DNA of 64,000 bases, taken from positions 44,357 to 108,356 of the IMG/VR virus record IMGVR_UViG_3300025778_000010, one strand, 5' to 3'. The notes under the pieces are model-generated. The model ran no database searches. It was not told the origin of the DNA and was given only the letters and a program-made list of their open reading frames with translations. Origin of the DNA: a virus. Below are positions 11,311-58,692 of the stretch, piece after piece; within the stretch, counting starts at the first letter, position 1, and the number at the start of each line of letters is the position of its first letter. A program made the position numbers and the translations under genes.

Positions 11311-11862
11311 TTAATATCTTTCTAATGTAGTAGGATTTAAGTTCTTAATTTGGTCATTTGACCAACCAGTATAAATCATACCAGCTCGGGGAGCTTCTAA
11401 TGTAATAACTCCATGTTTCCATCCTTCAGGAATATAGATTACATCTCCTGGTTCCATAATATACTTAACTTCCTTGCCATTTTCTATAACTGTCCATAAT
11501 GCTTTTCCTATGCAATTCCAGTGAATTTGCTTACCAGGATCAACATGCATAAAAAGTCCCGACCCATGCTCTGTTGTTTGAGAATAGATCATTACTGGTT
11601 CGTTCCAAAGATAGAGTCCAAAAGCTTTGAGCATTGCATCCTCAAATTCTTTAAACCCATTAAAGGCATAAAGCATAGGAAGCTTTTCTCCAGTGTAGTA
11701 AATTGTCAAAAATTCATTTTCTTTTCTAAGCTTACTTTTTGGTACCATCTGACTGCTTTTTACAAAAGTTTCAAAATTAGGCACAACAGGAAAAGCGTTC
11801 TTAAAATGAACAACTTTGTCGTCTTCTAATCTTGCTTGTTTCATTCTTTCTATAAAACTCAT
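11311..11862 (-). CDS. JmjC/cupin-like domain protein
   Basis: HVD...MEPGDVIYIPEGWKHGV. Confidence 0.75.
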   Translation of the reverse strand: MSFIERMKQARLEDDKVVHFKNAFPVVPNFETFVKSSQMVPKSKLRKENEFLTIYYTGEKLPMLYAFNGFKEFEDAMLKAFGLYLWNEPVMIYSQTTEHGSGLFMHVDPGKQIHWNCIGKALWTVIENGKEVKYIMEPGDVIYIPEGWKHGVITLEAPRAGMIYTGWSNDQIKNLNPTTLERY

Positions 11863-12098
11863 ATGCTATATTGTAGCACATTTCCACCAATTTTTTACAA
11901 TGTAACGTGTATCACACTAAATTAGATTTGATCAAAATGTTAATGGATTTTTAAAATGCATGATTCACTTTTAAAAACAAAAAATCAAATTTGAATAGTG
12001 CGCCCGAAATGTCCAAATTGCCCTGGTATGTACCCTAAAGATGTGGTCTATCTCACAAAGTTTTTTTAAAAGATGTCCGATTTGTACGCATTTTGGAG

Positions 12099-12127
12099 TT
12101 GAAAATGTCAGTGGTGTGTGTTATAGT
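12099..12127 (+). promoter_or_regulatory. sigmaA-type promoter with TGTCAG spacer element (first of the class)
   Basis: TTGAAA-17-TATAGT, TG extended -10, TGTCAG at 12106. Confidence 0.7.
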
Positions 12128-12183
12128 TACACTATAAGAAATTAACAAAGGTTGTTAGTTTAACTTAAAGAAAGGAAGTCAAA

Positions 12184-12408
12184 ATGACTTCACTAAATAA
12201 CTACTATAATGAAATCCGTATGGATATTGCTAAAGATTTTGGTCTAGAGGCAGGTGGCTATGCTCCCCGCCCTAAGTTAATGCCTATCACTATCGCTCAG
12301 CGTATTAACGCTAAGTATCCTAGTGTAGATAATGGCTCTCGTTGGGGTCAGCCTAATCCAAAGGCTATCCTAATCGCTAAGCGTTATCACGCTCTGTTTG
12401 TGGCGTAA
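12184..12408 (+). CDS. small early hypothetical protein
   Basis: AAAGAAAGGAAG SD; 74 aa. Confidence 0.7.
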   Translation: MTSLNNYYNEIRMDIAKDFGLEAGGYAPRPKLMPITIAQRINAKYPSVDNGSRWGQPNPKAILIAKRYHALFVA

Positions 12409-12423
12409 GTCACAATCACGGCA

Positions 12424-12464
12424 CGGCGTGTCGAGTTGATTTTGTCAGCCCTATCTGATAGACT
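12424..12464 (+). promoter_or_regulatory. GACAC box plus promoter
   Basis: CGGCGTGTCG, then TTGATT-17-TAGACT with TGTCAG spacer. Confidence 0.7.
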
Positions 12465-12494
12465 TCCAGTCATACAAATTAAATAAAGAAAAAT

Positions 12495-12568
12495 CCTAGT
12501 TGAGCCTCTGAGCCTTAGCAAATAATCCGAAAGGTGAGCCTAAGCAAATAAGAGCAAATAACACTAGG
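12495..12568 (+). ncRNA. candidate structured RNA: long hairpin with three identical internal loops
   Basis: CCTAGT/ACTAGG, CTC/GAG, CTTAG/CTAAG and CC-GAAA-GG stems separated by TGAGC opposite CAAATAA three times; downstream of a promoter. Confidence 0.7.
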
Positions 12569-12619
12569 CAAGGAAAGATAGATAAAAGGTTTATCTATAA
12601 AAAAAGAAAGGTGACTAAT

Positions 12620-12766
12620 ATGTCATACTCATTCGATAATAATAATAAAGACCGTTGGTCAGAACTAGCAGACAATTATCAATCAATGCTAGATGAACTA
12701 GCAGAATCAGAATCAGAATCTGTATTTATCCCCGTACCTGCGTTTGATGTAGACGAGGTGCTCTAA
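12620..12766 (+). CDS. small acidic protein (48 aa, not in ORF track)
   Basis: AAAGAAAGGTG SD; MSYSFDNNNKDRWSELAD... Confidence 0.65.
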   Translation: MSYSFDNNNKDRWSELADNYQSMLDELAESESESVFIPVPAFDVDEVL

Positions 12767-12859
12767 TGACTATAAATAGTTTAACTCTCATTTCACTATT
12801 GCTAGTGTCGTACCTATCTGCTAAACTACTAACCGATAAAGAATGGGGAAAGAATAAAA

Positions 12860-13066
12860 ATGAAAACTAAGATTATCGTACTAGGATTAGCACTCGCTCT
12901 AATTCCCGCCGTTGCTAACGCTCGTGGCACAAGCCATCATTCTTATAGCCTGTCTAGTGTAGGTCGCTACACTTATCACTATCACAAGCCTAGCCATATC
13001 TATTGCCCATATCAAGGCTGTAAAAAATCGTTCTCTAGTTTCACTAGCACTAGTGGCGGAAACTAA
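12860..13066 (+). CDS. small secreted His/Tyr-rich protein
   Basis: signal peptide MKTKIIVLGLALALIPAVANA. Confidence 0.6.
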   Translation: MKTKIIVLGLALALIPAVANARGTSHHSYSLSSVGRYTYHYHKPSHIYCPYQGCKKSFSSFTSTSGGN

Positions 13067-13123
13067 TGTCAGTGGTCTATGGTAGACTACTATTAACAAC
13101 AACAAGAAAAGGAAAATAAATAA

Positions 13124-13288
13124 ATGACAATCGAAAATCGTACTTACCAAATCGGTGACCTATTCACCACACAACGCTCAAAGGTAACAGGAACAATTAA
13201 GGAAATTGTAAATGTAAAGCCTAACCAATCTCGTGTGAAGTTGGAAGTTGACGGCAAAGACCGCTGGACAACTGTCACAATCAAGTAA
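13124..13288 (+). CDS. small beta-rich protein, paralog 1 (54 aa, not in ORF track)
   Basis: AGAAAAGGA SD; TYQIGDLFTT...VTG motif shared with 13368..13538. Confidence 0.75.
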   Translation: MTIENRTYQIGDLFTTQRSKVTGTIKEIVNVKPNQSRVKLEVDGKDRWTTVTIK

Positions 13289-13308
13289 AGTTTAGCAAAT
13301 CGCTAAAC

Positions 13309-13335
13309 GACCTGAGCAAGTCGGAAAAAGGCTCA
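13309..13335 (+). ncRNA. small H-type pseudoknot element (copy 1)
   Basis: GAC-CTGAGCAA-GTC hairpin whose loop TGAGC pairs with downstream GCTCA. Confidence 0.5.
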
Positions 13336-13367
13336 ACTAATACCCAACAAAGAAAAGGAAAAAAAGA

Positions 13368-13538
13368 ATGACACTACACGGATACACTTATCAAATCGGA
13401 GATTTATTCACCACATCAAAGACAGGCGTAACTGGACGAATTAACTCGTTCTCTCCTGTATCAAATAAAGTAACTCGTGTTGGTCTAACTTTAGCAAATG
13501 GCTCAAAGCGTATTGCTATGGTAAAGACAACGAAGTAA
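13368..13538 (+). CDS. small beta-rich protein, paralog 2 (56 aa, not in ORF track)
   Basis: AGAAAAGGA SD; TYQIGDLFTT...VTG. Confidence 0.75.
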   Translation: MTLHGYTYQIGDLFTTSKTGVTGRINSFSPVSNKVTRVGLTLANGSKRIAMVKTTK

Positions 13539-13619
13539 AAATAAAATAAGTTTAGGCGGGACTGCACACTAATAACGACACTCCCGCCTAATTCACAAAA
13601 CACGAAAGGAAAACTAATT

Positions 13620-13802
13620 ATGTCAATGTCACGCAAGGACTATGTTTCAACCGCTGAAATTATTAATTCTTATGCTTCAGAAATTAAACTCGAAGTGCTA
13701 GAAGATCTAGTAAATGATTTCATCGAAATGTTCGCATCAGATAACGAGCGATTCAATAGCGATAGATTTTGGGACGAGTGTTTTAAAAACACAAATCACT
13801 AA
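13620..13802 (+). CDS. small early protein
   Basis: GAAAGGA SD; MSRKDY...DNERFNSDRF. Confidence 0.7.
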   Translation: MSMSRKDYVSTAEIINSYASEIKLEVLEDLVNDFIEMFASDNERFNSDRFWDECFKNTNH

Positions 13803-13816
13803 ATAAAAATAAAAGC

Positions 13817-13850
13817 TTAGGCGTAGCAAAATTGCTACGCCTAATTTTAT
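13817..13850 (+). terminator. intrinsic terminator (potentially bidirectional)
   Basis: TTAGGCGTAGCAA/TTGCTACGCCTAA perfect stem with T/A tails. Confidence 0.7.
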
Positions 13851-13870
13851 TAAAAAATAAAAAAAAATAA

Positions 13871-14097
13871 CGGCGTGTCGGCTTGACAAAGCCGAGCCGA
13901 GGGGCTGGCCCAAAAAATCGGACATTTACGGCATTTAAGACATTCGATATACACAGATTTATCCACAAGCTGTGGATTATTGTTCATCTTAAATTAACCT
14001 AAAACTTACGGCGTGTCGCTTGATTTTTTCGATTTTATCTGATAAACTTCCAGTTATAAAATTAAATAAAGATATAAAAAATGTGATGTACTTCACA
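13871..14097. promoter_or_regulatory. composite regulatory module
   Basis: GACAC boxes (13871, 14009), GCTGGCCC (13904), 9-bp repeats (13917), DnaA boxes (13947-13979), PHO-like repeat (13982), promoter (14020-14048), perfect CRP palindrome (14082). Confidence 0.65.
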
Positions 14098-14206: not shown

Positions 14207-14506
14207 ATGGCTACACTAGAAGTAAAAGTAAATGATAGTTTTGTTCCGCTTGAGTATGCTCCAAGCGATGTAAAGATTTCTCTTGAGTGGGCGTTAATGA
14301 ATAATGCTCCAATGGTAGTAAAATCCACTACCCCCGCCGTTGTTCGTGTTTGCAAAGTTTGCGAATATGCACACGAAGGTTTGTATTGCACAAATTGTTT
14401 CACGGGTGAGCGTGTAAATTGCTCCCCTGCTGGCAAGTTTAATAAATGGTCAAAAGTGATGCGAATCACACCAACTACTTGCAACAAATCTCGGCGTGTC
14501 GCCTAG
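14207..14506 (+). CDS. small Cys-rich (CxxC x2) protein
   Basis: GAAAGGTGG SD; CKVC...CTNC. Confidence 0.65.
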   Translation: MATLEVKVNDSFVPLEYAPSDVKISLEWALMNNAPMVVKSTTPAVVRVCKVCEYAHEGLYCTNCFTGERVNCSPAGKFNKWSKVMRITPTTCNKSRRVA

Positions 14507-15309: not shown

Positions 15310-15517
15310 TGGCAACAACAATTCACCTTGGCGGAATAGAATCAGAATGTGAGAAGTGTCGTGAAATTGCGGGAGAAAATAATGAATAAAGTAAATCGTG
15401 TTCAAGAGTTGCGGAGATCAAATGCTGCAACTCCAATTCGTAACAAGAAAAAATATACACGTAAAAATAAATATAAAAATAAATTTGAATAAATATTTAT
15501 AACATTGCATAGCTATG

Positions 15518-17182: not shown

Positions 17183-17358
17183 CGGTGTGTCGAGTTGACA
17201 ACCGTTGATTTTTGGGCTGGCCCGTCAAGCCGACACGCCGTTTACGGGGCGTGATTTTAATCACATGGAATGGGCGGGGACAAAACGGACATATCAGACA
17301 AATCATTATTTAACTTAGGCTTTACGGGTAGACAGATGTCAGCCTTATCTGCTAGAAT
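17183..17358. promoter_or_regulatory. composite regulatory module with inverted GACAC-TTGAC arms around GCTGGCCC
   Basis: CGGTGTGTCGAGTTGAC...GCTGGCCC-GTCAAGCCGACACGCCG, CRP site 17250, 9-bp repeats 17278, promoter TAGACA-18-TAGAAT. Confidence 0.7.
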
Positions 17359-18465: not shown

Positions 18466-18539
18466 GATTCCATAGATCAATTGGTTAGATCGCTACCCTG
18501 TCACGGTAGAGGTTGCGGGTTCAAGTCCCGTTGGAATCG
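18466..18539 (+). tRNA. tRNA-Asp(GTC)
   Basis: GATTCCA/TGGAATC acceptor, CTACC-CTGTCAC-GGTAG anticodon arm, GGTTCAAGTCC T-arm. Confidence 0.92.
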
Positions 18540-18559
18540 CAAAGTTTAAATGGTCATCA

Positions 18560-18718
18560 CGGCGTGTCGAGTTGACAAAACAGCTGGGGCGGGCTGGCCC
18601 CATAAAATCCATAATGTCAAGTCTTTACGGATGTGATTATAAACACATTTACGGATGACCGATATGTCCGATTTGTCTGCGTGTCTAAATTGATTACTCA
18701 TGGGTAACTTGCTATAAT
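18560..18718. promoter_or_regulatory. composite regulatory module
   Basis: CGGCGTGTCGAGTTGACA, GCTGGCCC (18593), CRP-like site (18632), 9-bp repeats (18655), TTGATT-17-TATAAT. Confidence 0.65.
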
Positions 18719-22942: not shown

Positions 22943-23275
22943 ACATTACGAAGGGGCTTAAAATTCACGGGGAGTTTGCTGGTTTAAACTAACACATTAA
23001 TAAAAATATATCAAAGCCAGTATAAGAAATATACCAGACATTACGAAGGCATATACGGTAACATTTGTCAAGAGATATCTGTGTGATCTTGATCATATAT
23101 TTATATAAAATGTATAATAAAATAAAAACATTACGATTTCGATCAAAATTCACACGATATTCTATACATTTAGATCAAAATTGTCTAATATTATATCAAA
23201 ATTGTCAAAAATGTGTGCAAAATCACCCATATTTTTATGTGATATATATCATATCGCACGGATTTGACATTACGA
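22943..23275 (+). repeat. four dispersed ACATTACGA repeats
   Basis: copies at 22943, 23038, 23128, 23267. Confidence 0.75.
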
Positions 23276-32203: not shown

Positions 32204-32504
32204 GAATTTTCTTTAACTGACTCCATATTTCTGGGTCTTTGTGTGAGTTATTTTGTTTATCTATACGACCTAAGTCCATAAAAATACCGCCTCGTACACC
32301 AAACTCTTTATTTGCTACACCTTCTTTATGACATTGTTTAATTACTGGACAATGTAAACAAACTTGATCAATTTGTTTGGCAAGCTCTTTATCTGATTCA
32401 TAATCATCATAAAACCAATTAATTGACATATTTGTGCATGCTGCAAGGTGATACCATTTGATATCAACTTCATCAATTCCTAAATGACTAAATAAACCTG
32501 GCAT
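32178..32504 (-). CDS. whiB: WhiB-family Fe-S transcription factor
   Basis: W...AAC...C..CPV...C...G....EFGVRGG: four Cys plus G(V/I)WGG-like turn. Confidence 0.85.
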   Translation of the reverse strand: MPGLFSHLGIDEVDIKWYHLAACTNMSINWFYDDYESDKELAKQIDQVCLHCPVIKQCHKEGVANKEFGVRGGIFMDLGRIDKQNNSHKDPEIWSQLKKIHGKNILHS

Positions 32505-49612: not shown

Positions 49613-52600
49613 TTAAATCACCTCCTTAACATATAGGGTTCCGTCGTCCATTCTCGCAATTGCTGGATCACAAACAGTTCCTGGTTTCATTTTACCAAGT
49701 GCTGTTGTGTACATTTTTGGGAATGCAATGACTCTTTCTAAATTCTTATCAGAATCAGAAAGAATAATGTGTGCCATCATCTTGTTGGCTTTTGTTTTAT
49801 AATGTGTAAAATCTAACACTAATCTTTTGCCACTATCTATCTTTAACTTATCTTTGTAAAGCCATGTAACAAATGGGTCATCTAACTTTTCAACCACTTC
49901 GTTAATTGTAACATACTTATGAATTCTATTGTCACCAACTAAAAAGAAATACATCATTCCTGTTTCAATTTCTGTATTTTCGGCATGGAATATACCAATA
50001 GACCCAGTATCATCTACAAGCTCTACACGGCTCCAACCTTGACCTTTTTTGATTGATTTAACCATAGCAAGCAATACGTAGCAACCTTCTTCTAAAAATT
50101 CTTCAAGCGGATTAACTTGAGATTTAATTGCGGGACTTAATTTACCTGTATCAAATTTTGGTATACCAAGATATTCGTAAAGATTTTCATTTTCATTTCC
50201 CTTGCGTTTGTTATCTGGAAATGCAGCAGCACCAATTGTGTTAAGGGAGTCAACAGCACGAGAATTAATACCGCTGCCTTTTTCCATAGCGTGAGAGAGG
50301 AAAGATTTATAGTCAGCATAAGGTCTTGCACCGATAATTTTGCTACCAATACCATCTGAAATATATTTAATATTAGATAAACCAAATCTTAATGCGTTTC
50401 CTTGTATGCTGAAGTCAAGGCTAGATTCATTAACATGAGGTAGCAATACTTTGATTCCCAATCGCTTAGCTTCAAGCAAATAGTCAGTACGTGCATCTTT
50501 ATCTTTTTCATTTTTAAGAATGGCAAACATAAATTCAATAGGGTAATAATGCTTAAGCCAAGCAGTATAATAACTGAGCATAGAATAAGCAATTGCGTGA
50601 GAACGGTTGAACGAATATCCCGCATGAGCTTCAAAGTCATGCCATAACTTTGTGGCATCCTCAACAGTAATATGTTGTGAAGCACCCGTGATAAATTGGT
50701 CTTTATACGCATCAAACTCACTCGCATCCTTTTTCTTTCCGATAATCTTTCTAACCTTATCAGCATCAGCCCATGACATCCCGCCCAAATACACACAAGC
50801 CTGCATAACCTGCTCTTGATAAATAATTACACCATAGGTACGCTTTGTAAACTCCTGCATAATTGGATGTGCATACGTAATCATTTCATCGCCACGCTTA
50901 CGCTTAATATACGAAGCACCTACAGTATTCATTGCACCTGGACGAACAAGAGCGTTAGATGCTGCAAGGTCTTCAAATGTACTGACACCCATCTTCATAA
51001 GTAGATTTGTGTATGGTGTTGCTTCTGCTTGGAATACACCCTTTGTAAAACCGCTTGATAAATCAGCAAATACATTCTTATCATCTAGCGGTATGTCTTT
51101 TAAAATTATATCTTTTTTCTTGTTTGTCTTAATAATATTAACTGCATCATCAATAACAGAAAGTGTTTTAAGACCAAGTACGTCAAGCTTAATTAGTCCC
51201 AGGTCAGCAGTCTGCTCCATATCATAAGCAACTACAGGTATACGTCCAGATACAGAGTCGTCTGGATCTTTGCGAGTTTCAATAGGGACATACTTGCTGA
51301 TATCATCTTTTGCAACTACAACTCCAGCTGCATGCATACCATTTCCACGAATTTTACCACGTAGCATAGAGGCATACTTAGTTACCTCTGGATATTTTGC
51401 TCTAAACTCTGATGTGCTTTGAGATGACTCATATTCCTCAAATGTTTCAACACCTTTTAGGGCTTTATTAACTTCTCCTAGCGGTATTAAAAATGCACGA
51501 GCAACGTCACGAATTACGCCCTTATCTTTAAAATATGTATATGTAGAAATAGAGGCAACATGCTTAAACTTTTTACGCAAATATTCTTTTACTTCTCCAC
51601 GACGACGGTCCATGAAGTCCGTATCAATATCTGGGAAGTCATTACGCTCTGGATTAATAAAGCGAAAAAACAATAGGTCAAATTTAATTGGGTCTACATC
51701 AGTAATACCCATTAAATAACATACTAGAGATCCAGCAGCGGATCCTCGTCCTGGTCCAACCATGATTTTGTTATCTTTTGCCCAGCCCACCATATCGCCA
51801 ACAATAAGGAAGTAACTAGCAAAGTTTTTGTCAGCAATGACTTGAAGCTCCTCTTGGAGTCTTTCTCTGTATGTCTCATTGTCCAAATCCTTTTCTATTA
51901 GAGACTTTTCACACATTTCTTTTAATGTTTTTAAAGCATTCTTTTTTGGTACAGGAAGTAAGTCTAGATTCTCATGAAAATCATAAGCTTCAATCTTACC
52001 CGCAATCTCTACCGATGATTCATAGATGTCTTTTCTTTCAAAGCCCGCCTTGATAAAATCCACTTCAATTTCAGAACGGGATTGAATATAAACGTTAATA
52101 TCAGCGAAACTAATAGGGCGGTCGGGATAAATATGATCAAAGCGATCAAGAGTATTAGATCGTTGACGACCGCTTGCATAATCGGCATCTTTATTTTGCG
52201 TAGGCTTGGTTGAGAGGATGAGGAGTAATTCTTCCAAATCCCTCTCCTCTTTCTTTGCAAAATGACAATCTCCTGTAGCAACTGGCTTCACCTCAAATTC
52301 ATCTGCCAGAGCAAGGAGGGCAGTATTTAAACTTTCAGGATTGTGTGCTTGAACTTCAATGTAAAAATCTTTTTTAAAACGATCTTTAAACGTTTTTACA
52401 TACTCTCTTGCTTTATCATTATCTCCACGCTCAATTGCCTTAGAAATAAGACCGTTCATACAGCCTGATACTACAATTATACCGTCACCAAACTCAAATA
52501 AAGCCTCCATGTCAATACGTGGCTTATTGTAATATCCCTCAGTCCATGCAATTTGAGAAAGCTTTTGTAAATTCTTTAATCCCTCATCATTTTTAGCAAG

Positions 52601-52888
52601 AAGGATAATGTGATTATACAAGGAAGTATTGTCATCTCTTTTGGCTACCGCTCTTTTATCAAAACGATCTGTTGCTGAGATATAAGCTTCAAGACCGAGT
52701 ATAGGCTTCATGCCTAATTCTTTGGCAGCGATTTGCATATCTCTGTGAGATGACAAAGTTCCATGGTCTGTAATAGCTAAACTAGTCTGACCTTGTTGTT
52801 TTGCAGCCTCAAGTAATTCATGAGGAGTATTAAGTCCGTCCATAAGGGAGTAATGGCTGTGGACATGCAGATGTACAAAGTCAGACAT
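49613..52888 (-). CDS. dnaE: DNA polymerase III alpha subunit
   Basis: PHP domain HLHVHSHYSLMDG, GRGSAAGS, PDIDTDF, HAAGVV, KLDVLGL, YSFNRSHA. Confidence 0.96.
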   Translation of the reverse strand: MSDFVHLHVHSHYSLMDGLNTPHELLEAAKQQGQTSLAITDHGTLSSHRDMQIAAKELGMKPILGLEAYISATDRFDKRAVAKRDDNTSLYNHIILLAKNDEGLKNLQKLSQIAWTEGYYNKPRIDMEALFEFGDGIIVVSGCMNGLISKAIERGDNDKAREYVKTFKDRFKKDFYIEVQAHNPESLNTALLALADEFEVKPVATGDCHFAKKEERDLEELLLILSTKPTQNKDADYASGRQRSNTLDRFDHIYPDRPISFADINVYIQSRSEIEVDFIKAGFERKDIYESSVEIAGKIEAYDFHENLDLLPVPKKNALKTLKEMCEKSLIEKDLDNETYRERLQEELQVIADKNFASYFLIVGDMVGWAKDNKIMVGPGRGSAAGSLVCYLMGITDVDPIKFDLLFFRFINPERNDFPDIDTDFMDRRRGEVKEYLRKKFKHVASISTYTYFKDKGVIRDVARAFLIPLGEVNKALKGVETFEEYESSQSTSEFRAKYPEVTKYASMLRGKIRGNGMHAAGVVVAKDDISKYVPIETRKDPDDSVSGRIPVVAYDMEQTADLGLIKLDVLGLKTLSVIDDAVNIIKTNKKKDIILKDIPLDDKNVFADLSSGFTKGVFQAEATPYTNLLMKMGVSTFEDLAASNALVRPGAMNTVGASYIKRKRGDEMITYAHPIMQEFTKRTYGVIIYQEQVMQACVYLGGMSWADADKVRKIIGKKKDASEFDAYKDQFITGASQHITVEDATKLWHDFEAHAGYSFNRSHAIAYSMLSYYTAWLKHYYPIEFMFAILKNEKDKDARTDYLLEAKRLGIKVLLPHVNESSLDFSIQGNALRFGLSNIKYISDGIGSKIIGARPYADYKSFLSHAMEKGSGINSRAVDSLNTIGAAAFPDNKRKGNENENLYEYLGIPKFDTGKLSPAIKSQVNPLEEFLEEGCYVLLAMVKSIKKGQGWSRVELVDDTGSIGIFHAENTEIETGMMYFFLVGDNRIHKYVTINEVVEKLDDPFVTWLYKDKLKIDSGKRLVLDFTHYKTKANKMMAHIILSDSDKNLERVIAFPKMYTTALGKMKPGTVCDPAIARMDDGTLYVKEVI

Positions 52889-57795: not shown

Positions 57796-57888
57796 TTTTT
57801 TTCTCCTATTAGTTAGTTGACAGATGGGGCTTCACATGAAGCGGGATTTGAAACCCTCTTATATATAATTTTCCATCTGTTTCTCTGA

Positions 57889-58692
57889 TTAGACAGAGAA
57901 TAGTTTTCCATCTACTACACAAGTGTAGTTAGGTGAAATTTCCACAATCTGCACGTGAGGATGATTACCATTCTCAATAGTTGCGACTGCGAAACCCTTT
58001 TGCCAGTTATGGTTTTGAGTGTACTTCATGCCGTCACTCTTTTCATCACACATATGCCCAATTTCGTATCCTCGAATTGTTCTTCCGCCCGTTGCAACTG
58101 GCAACTCATATGTTTGGAAATGTGAAGCAATTCTGTGTGAATGTCCTCTGATCAATGAAATCTGTAAATCATCAATATCTTTTCTTACAGCACCTGTGTC
58201 TGCAATTGAAAGGCCATGATGTACGTGAATGTCTCCAAAACGATGTCTAGGCAACTCGTTATAATATATATAATCATACCCAAGTGAATCTAGTGACCAT
58301 AGGGATTCTGGTGTAATATCTTGAAGATACTCTGGTAGCTTTTTATCTAGGTAATCAAAAATTCTAATATCGTGGTTTCCTAATGCTGAAAATAATTGTG
58401 CATTAGGCAAAATCTCTCTAGTCTTAGTATAAAAATCTCTAGCACCCTTTGCTTCATGTCGCATCATAGGAACAATAAGATCTTTGCTATCATTTTTGTG
58501 AAGTTGAAGAAACTCTGCTGAACGTCCTTCGGTATATTTGCTGTAACACGCTTGGTCATCTGTATCGCCAAGATAATCTACAACGTCTGGCTTCATCCAT
58601 TTCATTACCTTAAACCAAAGTTCGATGGCCTTGTCATCTTGATACGGGAATTGCTGATCAGATGATAGCATCCATTTTAAATCGTTACTCAT
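57889..58692 (-). CDS. calcineurin-like metallophosphoesterase
   Basis: SD.Q.P, LGD..D, GNHD, HHG, GHSHR, NWQKGF. Confidence 0.85.
   Translation of the reverse strand: MSNDLKWMLSSDQQFPYQDDKAIELWFKVMKWMKPDVVDYLGDTDDQACYSKYTEGRSAEFLQLHKNDSKDLIVPMMRHEAKGARDFYTKTREILPNAQLFSALGNHDIRIFDYLDKKLPEYLQDITPESLWSLDSLGYDYIYYNELPRHRFGDIHVHHGLSIADTGAVRKDIDDLQISLIRGHSHRIASHFQTYELPVATGGRTIRGYEIGHMCDEKSDGMKYTQNHNWQKGFAVATIENGNHPHVQIVEISPNYTCVVDGKLFSV

Follow-up and report, generated by a model that had tools for sequence, protein, structure and literature searches.

The stretch analysed here, hereafter the window, is 64,000 nucleotides long and is part of an IMG/VR genome that is complete at 108 kb and has a GC content of about 36%. 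Seven tRNA genes were detected in the window. Six ordinary tRNA genes were located at 18466, 34995, 35069, 38809, 39005 and 39968, and ARAGORN reported a 94-nt tRNA with a four-base anticodon (ctaa), left without an amino-acid identity by the program, on the minus strand at 57832-57925. A gene of the WhiB family (PF02467, 37.6 bits) is located on the minus strand at about 32283-32456, and the DnaE-type polymerase encoded at 49613-52888 displayed about 57% identity to those of Streptomyces phages of the BillNye group. Based on the WhiB gene and this Streptomyces-phage-like DnaE, the host is probably an actinobacterium. Among sequencing runs, the stretch was present in freshwater DNA metagenomes only, and no RNA run was among those listed.

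The locus of interest follows a 74-aa ORF (12184-12408, + strand), whose own promoter (12099-12127, +) has a leader without a loop element. Behind this ORF lies a terminator-like hairpin (12419-12433, +) containing the box ACGGCGTGTC at 12423-12432, and then a predicted early promoter of the sigma-70/sigma-A type, identified by consensus (12436-12464, +). Its parts are the -35 hexamer TTGATT (12436-41), a 17-nt spacer, TGa (12456-58) and the -10 hexamer TAGACT (12459-64). The transcription start predicted from this consensus promoter alone is near 12471-12473, about 23 nt ahead of the hairpin element; roughly 25 nt had been proposed in an earlier sequence-only reading of this DNA. The A/U-rich 5′ leader AUACAAAUUAAAUAAAGAAAAAU (12472-12494, +) contains the AWUAAAUA core that is common to most elements (175 of the 248 distinct elements among the matches listed). 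The element itself (12495-12568, +) is followed by the conserved linker CAAGGAAAG, a second leader hairpin of 9 bp with the loop AGG (12578-12598, +), the Shine-Dalgarno-like sequence GAAAGGUG (12606-13, +) and the first ORF of the operon, which encodes 48 aa (ATG at 12620 to stop at 12766, +). The element thereby heads a 1.2-kb operon of six small ORFs (12620-13802), which ends in a bidirectional terminator (13817-13844).

The element is a 74-nt three-loop hairpin defined by sequence, fold, covariance model and relatives. Its order on the + strand is P0, UGAGC, P1, UGAGC, P2, CAAAUAA, P3 with a GAAA cap, UGAGC, P2′, CAAAUAA, P1′, CAAAUAA and P0′. The string given for this segment in the sequence-only reading matches the window letter by letter, and the four pairing stems claimed there are complementary in all four cases. 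The basal helix P0 has 6 bp (CCUAGU 12495-12500 / ACUAGG 12563-12568) and is followed by loop 1 (UGAGC 12501-05 / CAAAUAA 12555-61), beside which C12562 is bulged. The 3-bp helix P1 (CUC 12506-08 / GAG 12552-54) separates loop 1 from loop 2 (UGAGC 12509-13 / CAAAUAA 12545-51). Beyond the 5-bp helix P2 (CUUAG 12514-18 / CUAAG 12540-44), loop 3 is found in the flipped orientation (CAAAUAA 12519-25, plus U12526, / UGAGC 12535-39), and the hairpin is closed by the 2-bp helix P3 (CC 12527-28 / GG 12533-34) with its GAAA cap (12529-32).

The inner two loops are a direct DNA repeat of the 17-mer TGAGCCTNAGCAAATAA (12509-12525 and 12535-12551). Two exact copies of this 17-mer occur in the 64 kb window, and also across the whole 108 kb genome only two, both within the element. 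The flipped third loop is explained by a direct repeat that contains the pairing core. The earlier statement that the element is not a simple tandem duplication thus stands in part: the inner unit is a direct 17-mer repeat for which an origin by duplication is possible, and the covariation presented below shows that its pairing is selected. The segment had also been described as free of ORFs, which is true for the + strand, but the minus strand has a 44-codon frame with a TTG start (12387-12521), the sole ORF overlapping the element.

The minimum-energy fold of the isolated 74-mer (-11.3 kcal/mol) is the proposed structure with one extra pair, and the proposed structure alone scores -8.7 kcal/mol. 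When flanking sequence is included, the minimum-energy fold departs from the proposed structure, the alternative being slightly better. The folding energy was not significantly different from that of shuffled sequence (z = +0.40). Given this z value and the altered fold with flanks, thermodynamics alone would not pick out the element. What lifts it beyond chance is the recurrence of the same architecture, with different and compensating stems, in hundreds of contigs.

The early region is also rich in two DNA motifs. The 10-mer ACGGCGTGTC has 8 copies with at most one mismatch versus 0.58 expected, all of them at 12.4-19.6 kb. Besides the copy at 12423-12432, exact matches were found at 13870-13879, 14008-14017 and 18559-18568 on the + strand and at 17232-17241 on the minus strand, and one-mismatch copies at 14491, 15553 and 19622. 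At least three + strand copies (12423, 13870, 14008) lie directly upstream of a -35 hexamer, the box also precedes promoters in relatives (contig L140), and its opposite strand contains GACAC. A transcription factor probably binds DNA at this 10-mer. The second motif is the CRP/GlxR-like palindrome TGTGA-N6-TCACA, counted 12 times versus 3.0 expected and concentrated in the early region, with a perfect copy at 14082-14097 and one-mismatch copies at 11901-11916, 12042-12057, 12399-12414, 14455-14470, 17250-17265, 18632-18647, 23082-23097 and 23238-23253. One such box is situated about 65 nt upstream of the predicted transcription start of the element. Another makes up the hairpin in the leader of the next promoter (14020-14050); that leader begins in the same way and has a plain UGUGA-N6-UCACA hairpin in place of the element. 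In relatives, TGTGA-N6-TCACA is the apical P3 of two-loop elements with 35-nt spacing. There the stem is invariant and the 6-nt centre varies, which suggests a DNA-level site nested within the RNA element of this one subgroup.

A pattern scan of IMG/VR for the 17-mer returned at least 117 contigs, mostly with two copies spaced 26-35 nt, and two more scans with the helix between the loops unconstrained returned at least 116 and at least 120 contigs. Sequence comparison places the element in a large family of structured leader RNAs, found in hundreds of related phage contigs. Among the matches listed, and with P2 left free in the pattern, P2 was perfectly complementary in 178 of 180 distinct two-loop elements. 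Twelve P2 pair types were seen in these matches, including CUAG/CUAG, CUUAG/CUAAG, CUAAG/CUUAG, CUAC/GUAG, CUAU/AUAG and CUCG/CGAG, and the apical P3 hairpin displayed 77 distinct sequences. The variation of P2 (CUAG, CUAC/GUAG, CUAU/AUAG and others) rules out that CCUAAG serves as half of an 11-nt GAAA-tetraloop receptor. Stop codons in all three frames (UGA, UAG and UAA in the 17-mer) were likewise dismissed as a defining property, being present in the forms with a 5-bp P2 and not in those with a 4-bp P2.

The pairing was evaluated in two alignments. In alignment A1, made of 72 sequences with MAFFT and a structure written by hand, 90.4% of the paired cells were complementary versus 75.4% in shuffles. 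The covariation score was 0.34 versus 0.10, a value reached by 0 of 500 shuffles, and pairing went down to 25-41% in the slid controls. A covariance model, R1, was built from loop-fixed sequences and gave 114 further matches. It matched the window element with 56.1 bits (E about 1e-12). Alignment A2, with 91 distinct rows, was fitted to this model, the free-P2 count (178/180) serving as the independent test. In A2, compensatory double changes occurred in 14 of the 15 modelled pairs, the covariation score was 0.55 versus 0.11, and pairing amounted to 16-49% when the partner columns were slid. A covariance model of relatives had been named by the sequence-only reading as a check on the fold, and the stems indeed covary. 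Across the 24 distinct three-loop forms, of which the window sequence is one, P0, P1, P2 and P3 all covary.

Four topologies were distinguished by the order of UGAGC (U) and CAAAUAA (C) strands, and the multivalent architecture proposed earlier is supported by one to three copies of one loop per hairpin. Most frequent among the matches listed was UCUC, in which two loops are flipped around a 4-5 bp helix (n = 244), followed by UUCUCC with three loops as in the window (n = 41, 24 distinct), UC with a single loop beneath a plain hairpin (n = 28) and UUCC with two nested loops (n = 9). Replacing the tetraloop of a one-loop hairpin by the two-loop unit yields the three-loop form, and the basal stem CCUAG/CUAGG is found in close relatives carrying either the one-loop or the three-loop form.

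The well-aligned helices contained 10 G-U pairs and 0 A-C pairs, which identifies the folded strand as the + strand, the sense strand for the downstream genes. This count and the co-orientation with promoter and downstream genes bear out the original call of a structured RNA on the + strand. A terminator acting on the minus strand, considered on account of the U-rich run that follows in the window, was rejected because this run is non-adjacent in most relatives and the wobbles favour the + strand. The same counts weigh on the possibility that the element works as DNA, be it as a single-stranded hairpin for an HUH/Y1-type enzyme, as a replication-origin structure or as a selfish palindromic insert spreading together with a promoter cassette. 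Units of promoter, leader and element are found in tandem and on both arms, the two-loop unit is seemingly inserted at the tip of one-loop hairpins, and P3 is the DNA-type palindrome TGTGA-N6-TCACA in one subgroup. A DNA-level role is nevertheless very improbable, as G-U but no A-C pairs are present, orientation strictly follows promoter and genes, and the 1-3 copies per genome are always found in leaders and are not dispersed. Moreover, the spacing between TGAGC and CAAATAA ranges from 4 to more than 20 nt, so that only folding unites them.

For the folded RNA, the comparisons identify the putative functional unit as the 5 × 7 nt internal loop (5′-UGAGC-3′ / 5′-CAAAUAA-3′) between helices of arbitrary sequence, not the whole hairpin. 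Its smallest carrier, the one-loop hairpin, measures about 35 nt. Three kinds of closure were seen at the end of the loop that faces away from P2: a purine-purine pair (A.G or G.A), a helix together with one bulged pyrimidine, as in the window, or a helix joined directly.

Most elements were retrieved by patterns in which the loop was fixed, which inflates the apparent invariance of the loop. A sample of 36 loci was fetched independently of the motif, via the neighbouring 74-aa protein; this protein-anchored sample is the least biased by retrieval, though its finder R1 came from loop-fixed sequences. Elements were present in 30 of the 36 protein-anchored loci. UGAGC was intact in 62 of 62 strands, and the opposite strands read CAAAUAA in 61 cases and CGAAUAA in one. 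Pairwise identity within the co-located protein families of the same loci had a median of about 50% and went as low as about 25%. Rare loop variants found elsewhere were AGAGC, CGAGC, UGCGC and CGAAUAA. Invariant loop letters next to proteins at 25-50% identity led us to propose a slowly evolving partner, such as a host machine or a strongly conserved early protein; a co-evolving phage pair of the N/boxB type would not fit.

The reading that we favour, and to which we would give about an even chance, is that a trans-acting factor, most probably a protein, recognises the loop as a module, and that the leader is a multivalent binding platform. Each loop would fold into a defined non-canonical motif read by this factor, and the platform would be displayed on the first RNAs made after infection. 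Candidate partners are a conserved early protein of the phage or host machinery such as RNA polymerase, a termination factor, a ribonuclease or the ribosome. Binding would either govern how early transcripts fare in elongation, stability or translation, or titrate the factor itself. A conserved partner is proposed since the loop letters are invariant while stems and neighbouring genes diverge, and since the loop number varies from 1 to 3 among close relatives and the two-loop unit is pseudo-two-fold. Several features favour a protein: the loop is fixed in sequence, beyond shape alone; its number shifts between close relatives, as if binding capacity matters; the flipped loop pair around a half-turn helix has a pseudo-two-fold symmetry that would suit a dimer; and neither a gene class nor an expression platform is associated with the element. 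The invariant loops could equally fit a small ligand or a purely RNA-level fold.

A bolder version of this reading is that the early leaders, strongly transcribed, are a multivalent RNA decoy that would titrate a conserved host factor within the first minutes of infection, each loop being a self-contained high-affinity aptamer. Termination or RNA-decay proteins, immune sensors and immune second messengers are conceivable targets. We consider this version possible but doubtful. If true, it would represent an RNA-based sponge for host takeover or anti-defence, built from a new RNA 3D motif.

The genomic setting of the family bears on the more specific alternatives. The first UGAGC of the window element is 36 nt downstream of the -10 hexamer, and a same-strand TGnTAnnnT was found 19-50 nt before the first UGAGC in 203 of the 248 distinct elements among the matches listed, with a mode of 35-38 nt. 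Among these matches, 303 elements had a same-strand ORF with a Shine-Dalgarno-like site within 400 nt. Genomes contain 1-3 elements, clustered on both arms of a divergent early control region. Contig L140 has a pair of tandem promoters, each with a separate element. In relatives, one or two elements stand ahead of the homologue of the 74-aa gene (L140, 2715-2788 and 2875-2943). As the elements of relatives precede this gene, the element is one gene further downstream in the window phage.

Median distances to the first downstream genes range between 28 and more than 200 nt. These genes fall into at least 49 unrelated clusters, a diversity that speaks against both a riboswitch tied to one gene and an autoregulatory operator, and the element is accordingly unlikely to be a classical metabolite riboswitch. 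In a wider sense the loop might be an aptamer for a small molecule or ion, binding a metabolite, a second messenger or a metal, and thereby sensing the state of the host or soaking up a signal. Compact invariant internal loops between free helices are typical of small natural aptamers, the invariance across diverged phages suits a chemically fixed ligand, and tandem copies are known for some riboswitch classes. Set against this are the lack of any gene-class association among the 49 clusters and of a recognisable expression platform, the start codon being 28 to more than 200 nt away. There is no overlapping terminator, the ribosome-binding site is unsequestered and the fold has no alternative pairing. 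Finally, the element is confined to phage early leaders and was not found in the bacterial genomes searched. A small-ligand aptamer is decidedly less probable than recognition by a protein and, taken by itself, quite improbable.

Position in the leader and co-orientation with genes would also agree with a structural or processing element without a partner, a rigid non-canonical motif that shapes the 5′ leader. It might block 5′-end-dependent RNases or Rho loading, be a site of the RNase III/E type or enhance translation. The second conserved hairpin downstream points in the same direction; relatives have a hairpin at its position with different stems and loops such as AAAG and CACAAGG. The early RNase III sites of T7, too, are hairpins with conserved asymmetric internal loops. 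Yet an invariant 12-nt loop sequence is unnecessary for stability or insulation, the distance of about 23 nt from the predicted 5′ end would be too far for classical 5′-end protection, and the inter-loop helices of 2-6 bp are short for RNase III. The variation of the loop number from 1 to 3 is better explained by the dosage of binding sites, and we regard a partner-less element as rather unlikely.

Processive antitermination of the nut/put type is a special case of protein binding, in which the leader would bind RNA polymerase directly or via a small basic phage peptide and give the early operons resistance to terminators or Rho. Elements placed directly after early promoters, on both arms and at 1-3 per genome, recall nutL/nutR and putL/putR, every tandem promoter has an element of its own, and many terminator-like hairpins were seen in the early region. 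A candidate peptide also exists. A very basic short ORF (15349-15492, +), with the stretches ...ELRRSNAATPIRNKKKYTRK... and ...VQELRRSNAATPIRNKKKYTRKNKYKNKFE, belongs to a family of 36-47 aa peptides matching PHROG 11957 (unknown function); 91 of 243 element loci have a member in their early region. The peptide is a candidate arginine/lysine-rich RNA binder. A tblastn search with it against isolate phages gave no match. On the other hand, this peptide is not encoded adjacent to the element, and the element has neither boxA/boxB likeness nor an Rfam match. No terminator-like site was found inside the window operon (12620-13802) before 13817, which leaves antitermination without an obvious target there, and the next operon has its own promoter without an element. 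Antitermination is thus unlikely as the specific form of the favoured protein recognition.

Other proteins were screened for a role as partner of the loop. No protein with a CAT_RBD (PF03123), L7Ae or dsRBD domain is encoded by the phage. For the most widely co-located early small proteins, no function was found in Pfam or PHROG, and an ESM Atlas search of the co-located early proteins returned viral hypotheticals only. The 74-aa neighbour was set aside as a binder, its AlphaFold model of three helices (pLDDT 71) being uninformative; it had no Foldseek match at E ≤ 0.001 and no PDB sequence match. The most widely co-located family, present in 157 of 243 loci including divergent ones, is that of a 60-aa protein (13620-13802, +). 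Its members are encoded on the same strand about 0.6 kb downstream of the elements and belong to no Pfam family. Two RNA-level targets were also discarded. Mimicry of a universal rRNA site was examined in E. coli, where AAUAA is absent from 16S, 23S and 5S rRNA, a proxy that is uninformative on actinobacterial rRNA. For a trans-acting complementary phage RNA, the matches were the element's own antisense and one chance site.

The family matched nothing in Rfam 15, GenBank phage isolates, the sampled bacterial genomes or the searched literature. The Rfam search called for in the sequence-only reading was performed as a cmscan of 11500-13500 on both strands (Rfam 15, E ≤ 10) and gave no family. 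Over the element only noise was recorded (rli24 with 17.9 bits against a gathering score of 100, ceN28 with 16 against 70). Comparison of both the region and the element with 50,697 GenBank phage records by BLAST likewise returned only noise; the best row, a 40-nt match beside tRNA genes in Ounavirinae phages, lacks UGAGC and was attributed to chance. No paper containing the core sequence was found in the literature searched. A published catalogue (PMC10690425, 2023) lists 10,006 candidate RNAs from IMG/VR without naming them; its main text does not describe the element, which may be listed unnamed in the supplementary tables.

The carriers of the family are a lineage of roughly 100-kb freshwater phages with WhiB, which probably infect actinobacteria. 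In 150 sampled genomes of one bacterial class, no element was found. Among GTDB genomes the element was detected on 5 MAG contigs only, which have inconsistent taxonomy and are probably binned phage contigs. Weak R1 matches at G000:28392-28478 and in genome G102 were inspected and are not elements.

Supported by covariation, this RNA family is very abundant in environmental phages, and its design is unusual in that one 12-nt internal loop is the building block, used 1-3 times per hairpin and in either orientation. The invariant loop would mark a specific molecular contact at the start of infection in freshwater bacteria, probably actinobacteria, and gene control in such phage-host systems is little understood. 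The one-loop hairpin of about 35 nt is small enough for NMR, crystallography and pull-downs, and a small, modular and sequence-defined RNA handle would be a useful tool.

Several known systems share single traits with the element. The loop may be compared with two internal-loop 3D motifs. Its long strand ends in UAA and its short strand has GAG, antiparallel to it, which we take to correspond to GAN of the UAA/GAN motif, presumably no more than a lead; the element loop is larger (5 × 7 nt) and has four more invariant letters (CAAA) and an invariant C. In the kink-turn, a 3-nt bulge is followed by tandem sheared G-A / A-G pairs, with GA on both strands. A loop of this kink-turn/L7Ae type was not seen in the element, where the long strand CAAAUAA is without GA, and no L7Ae is encoded by the phage.

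CsrB and RsmZ are bacterial stand-alone sRNAs that show GGA in hairpin loops. With these the element shares many copies of a short motif on stem-loops, with a copy number that varies between relatives, and it differs in being an internal loop within phage mRNA leaders. Actinobacteria are not known to have CsrA. The RAT hairpin has two asymmetric internal loops in a pseudo-two-fold arrangement, which are read by a dimer of CAT domains (BglG/SacY/LicT), and would offer the closest structural parallel to the two-loop unit flipped around its 4-5 bp helix. RAT, however, overlaps a terminator, whereas none overlaps the element (no U-tract) and the CAT_RBD domain is missing from the phage. The loop sequences also differ, and the element family adds one-loop and three-loop forms.

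The lambda nut site consists of boxA and boxB and is recognised by the small arginine-rich protein N in concert with host factors. The terminal loop is what is read in boxB, a simple 15-nt hairpin, and boxB/N pairs diverge between lambdoid phages. The likeness lies in a leader site that heads early operons and in the small basic peptide family of the element phages. In the element, by contrast, recognition would use the internal loops, and the loop is invariant across the family. Neither a boxA consensus nor a boxB hairpin with a GNRA-like pentaloop was found at the element, whose sole terminal loop, GAAA, caps a 2-bp stem; in relatives the P3 sequence varies freely. In phage HK022, the early promoters of both arms are each closely followed by a cis-acting structured RNA of about 70 nt (putL, putR); conserved unpaired nucleotides within the stems of these RNAs are essential, and put acts on RNA polymerase. 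The likeness is a promoter-proximal structured RNA on both early arms. A put site is made of two adjacent stem-loops, whereas the element is one rod with repeated loops, followed by the simple hairpin at 12578-12598; there is no sequence likeness, and the window operon is without an internal terminator.

The element was assigned to none of nut, RAT, the sponge RNAs and put: boxB, an overlapping terminator and CAT_RBD or L7Ae proteins were looked for and not found, and its architecture differs from that of put. By analogy, HK022 put and lambda nut would be its closest counterparts in position, the RAT hairpin in geometry and the multi-site sponge RNAs in logic, and the element is a cis-encoded structured leader RNA of phage early operons with an unusual modular build.
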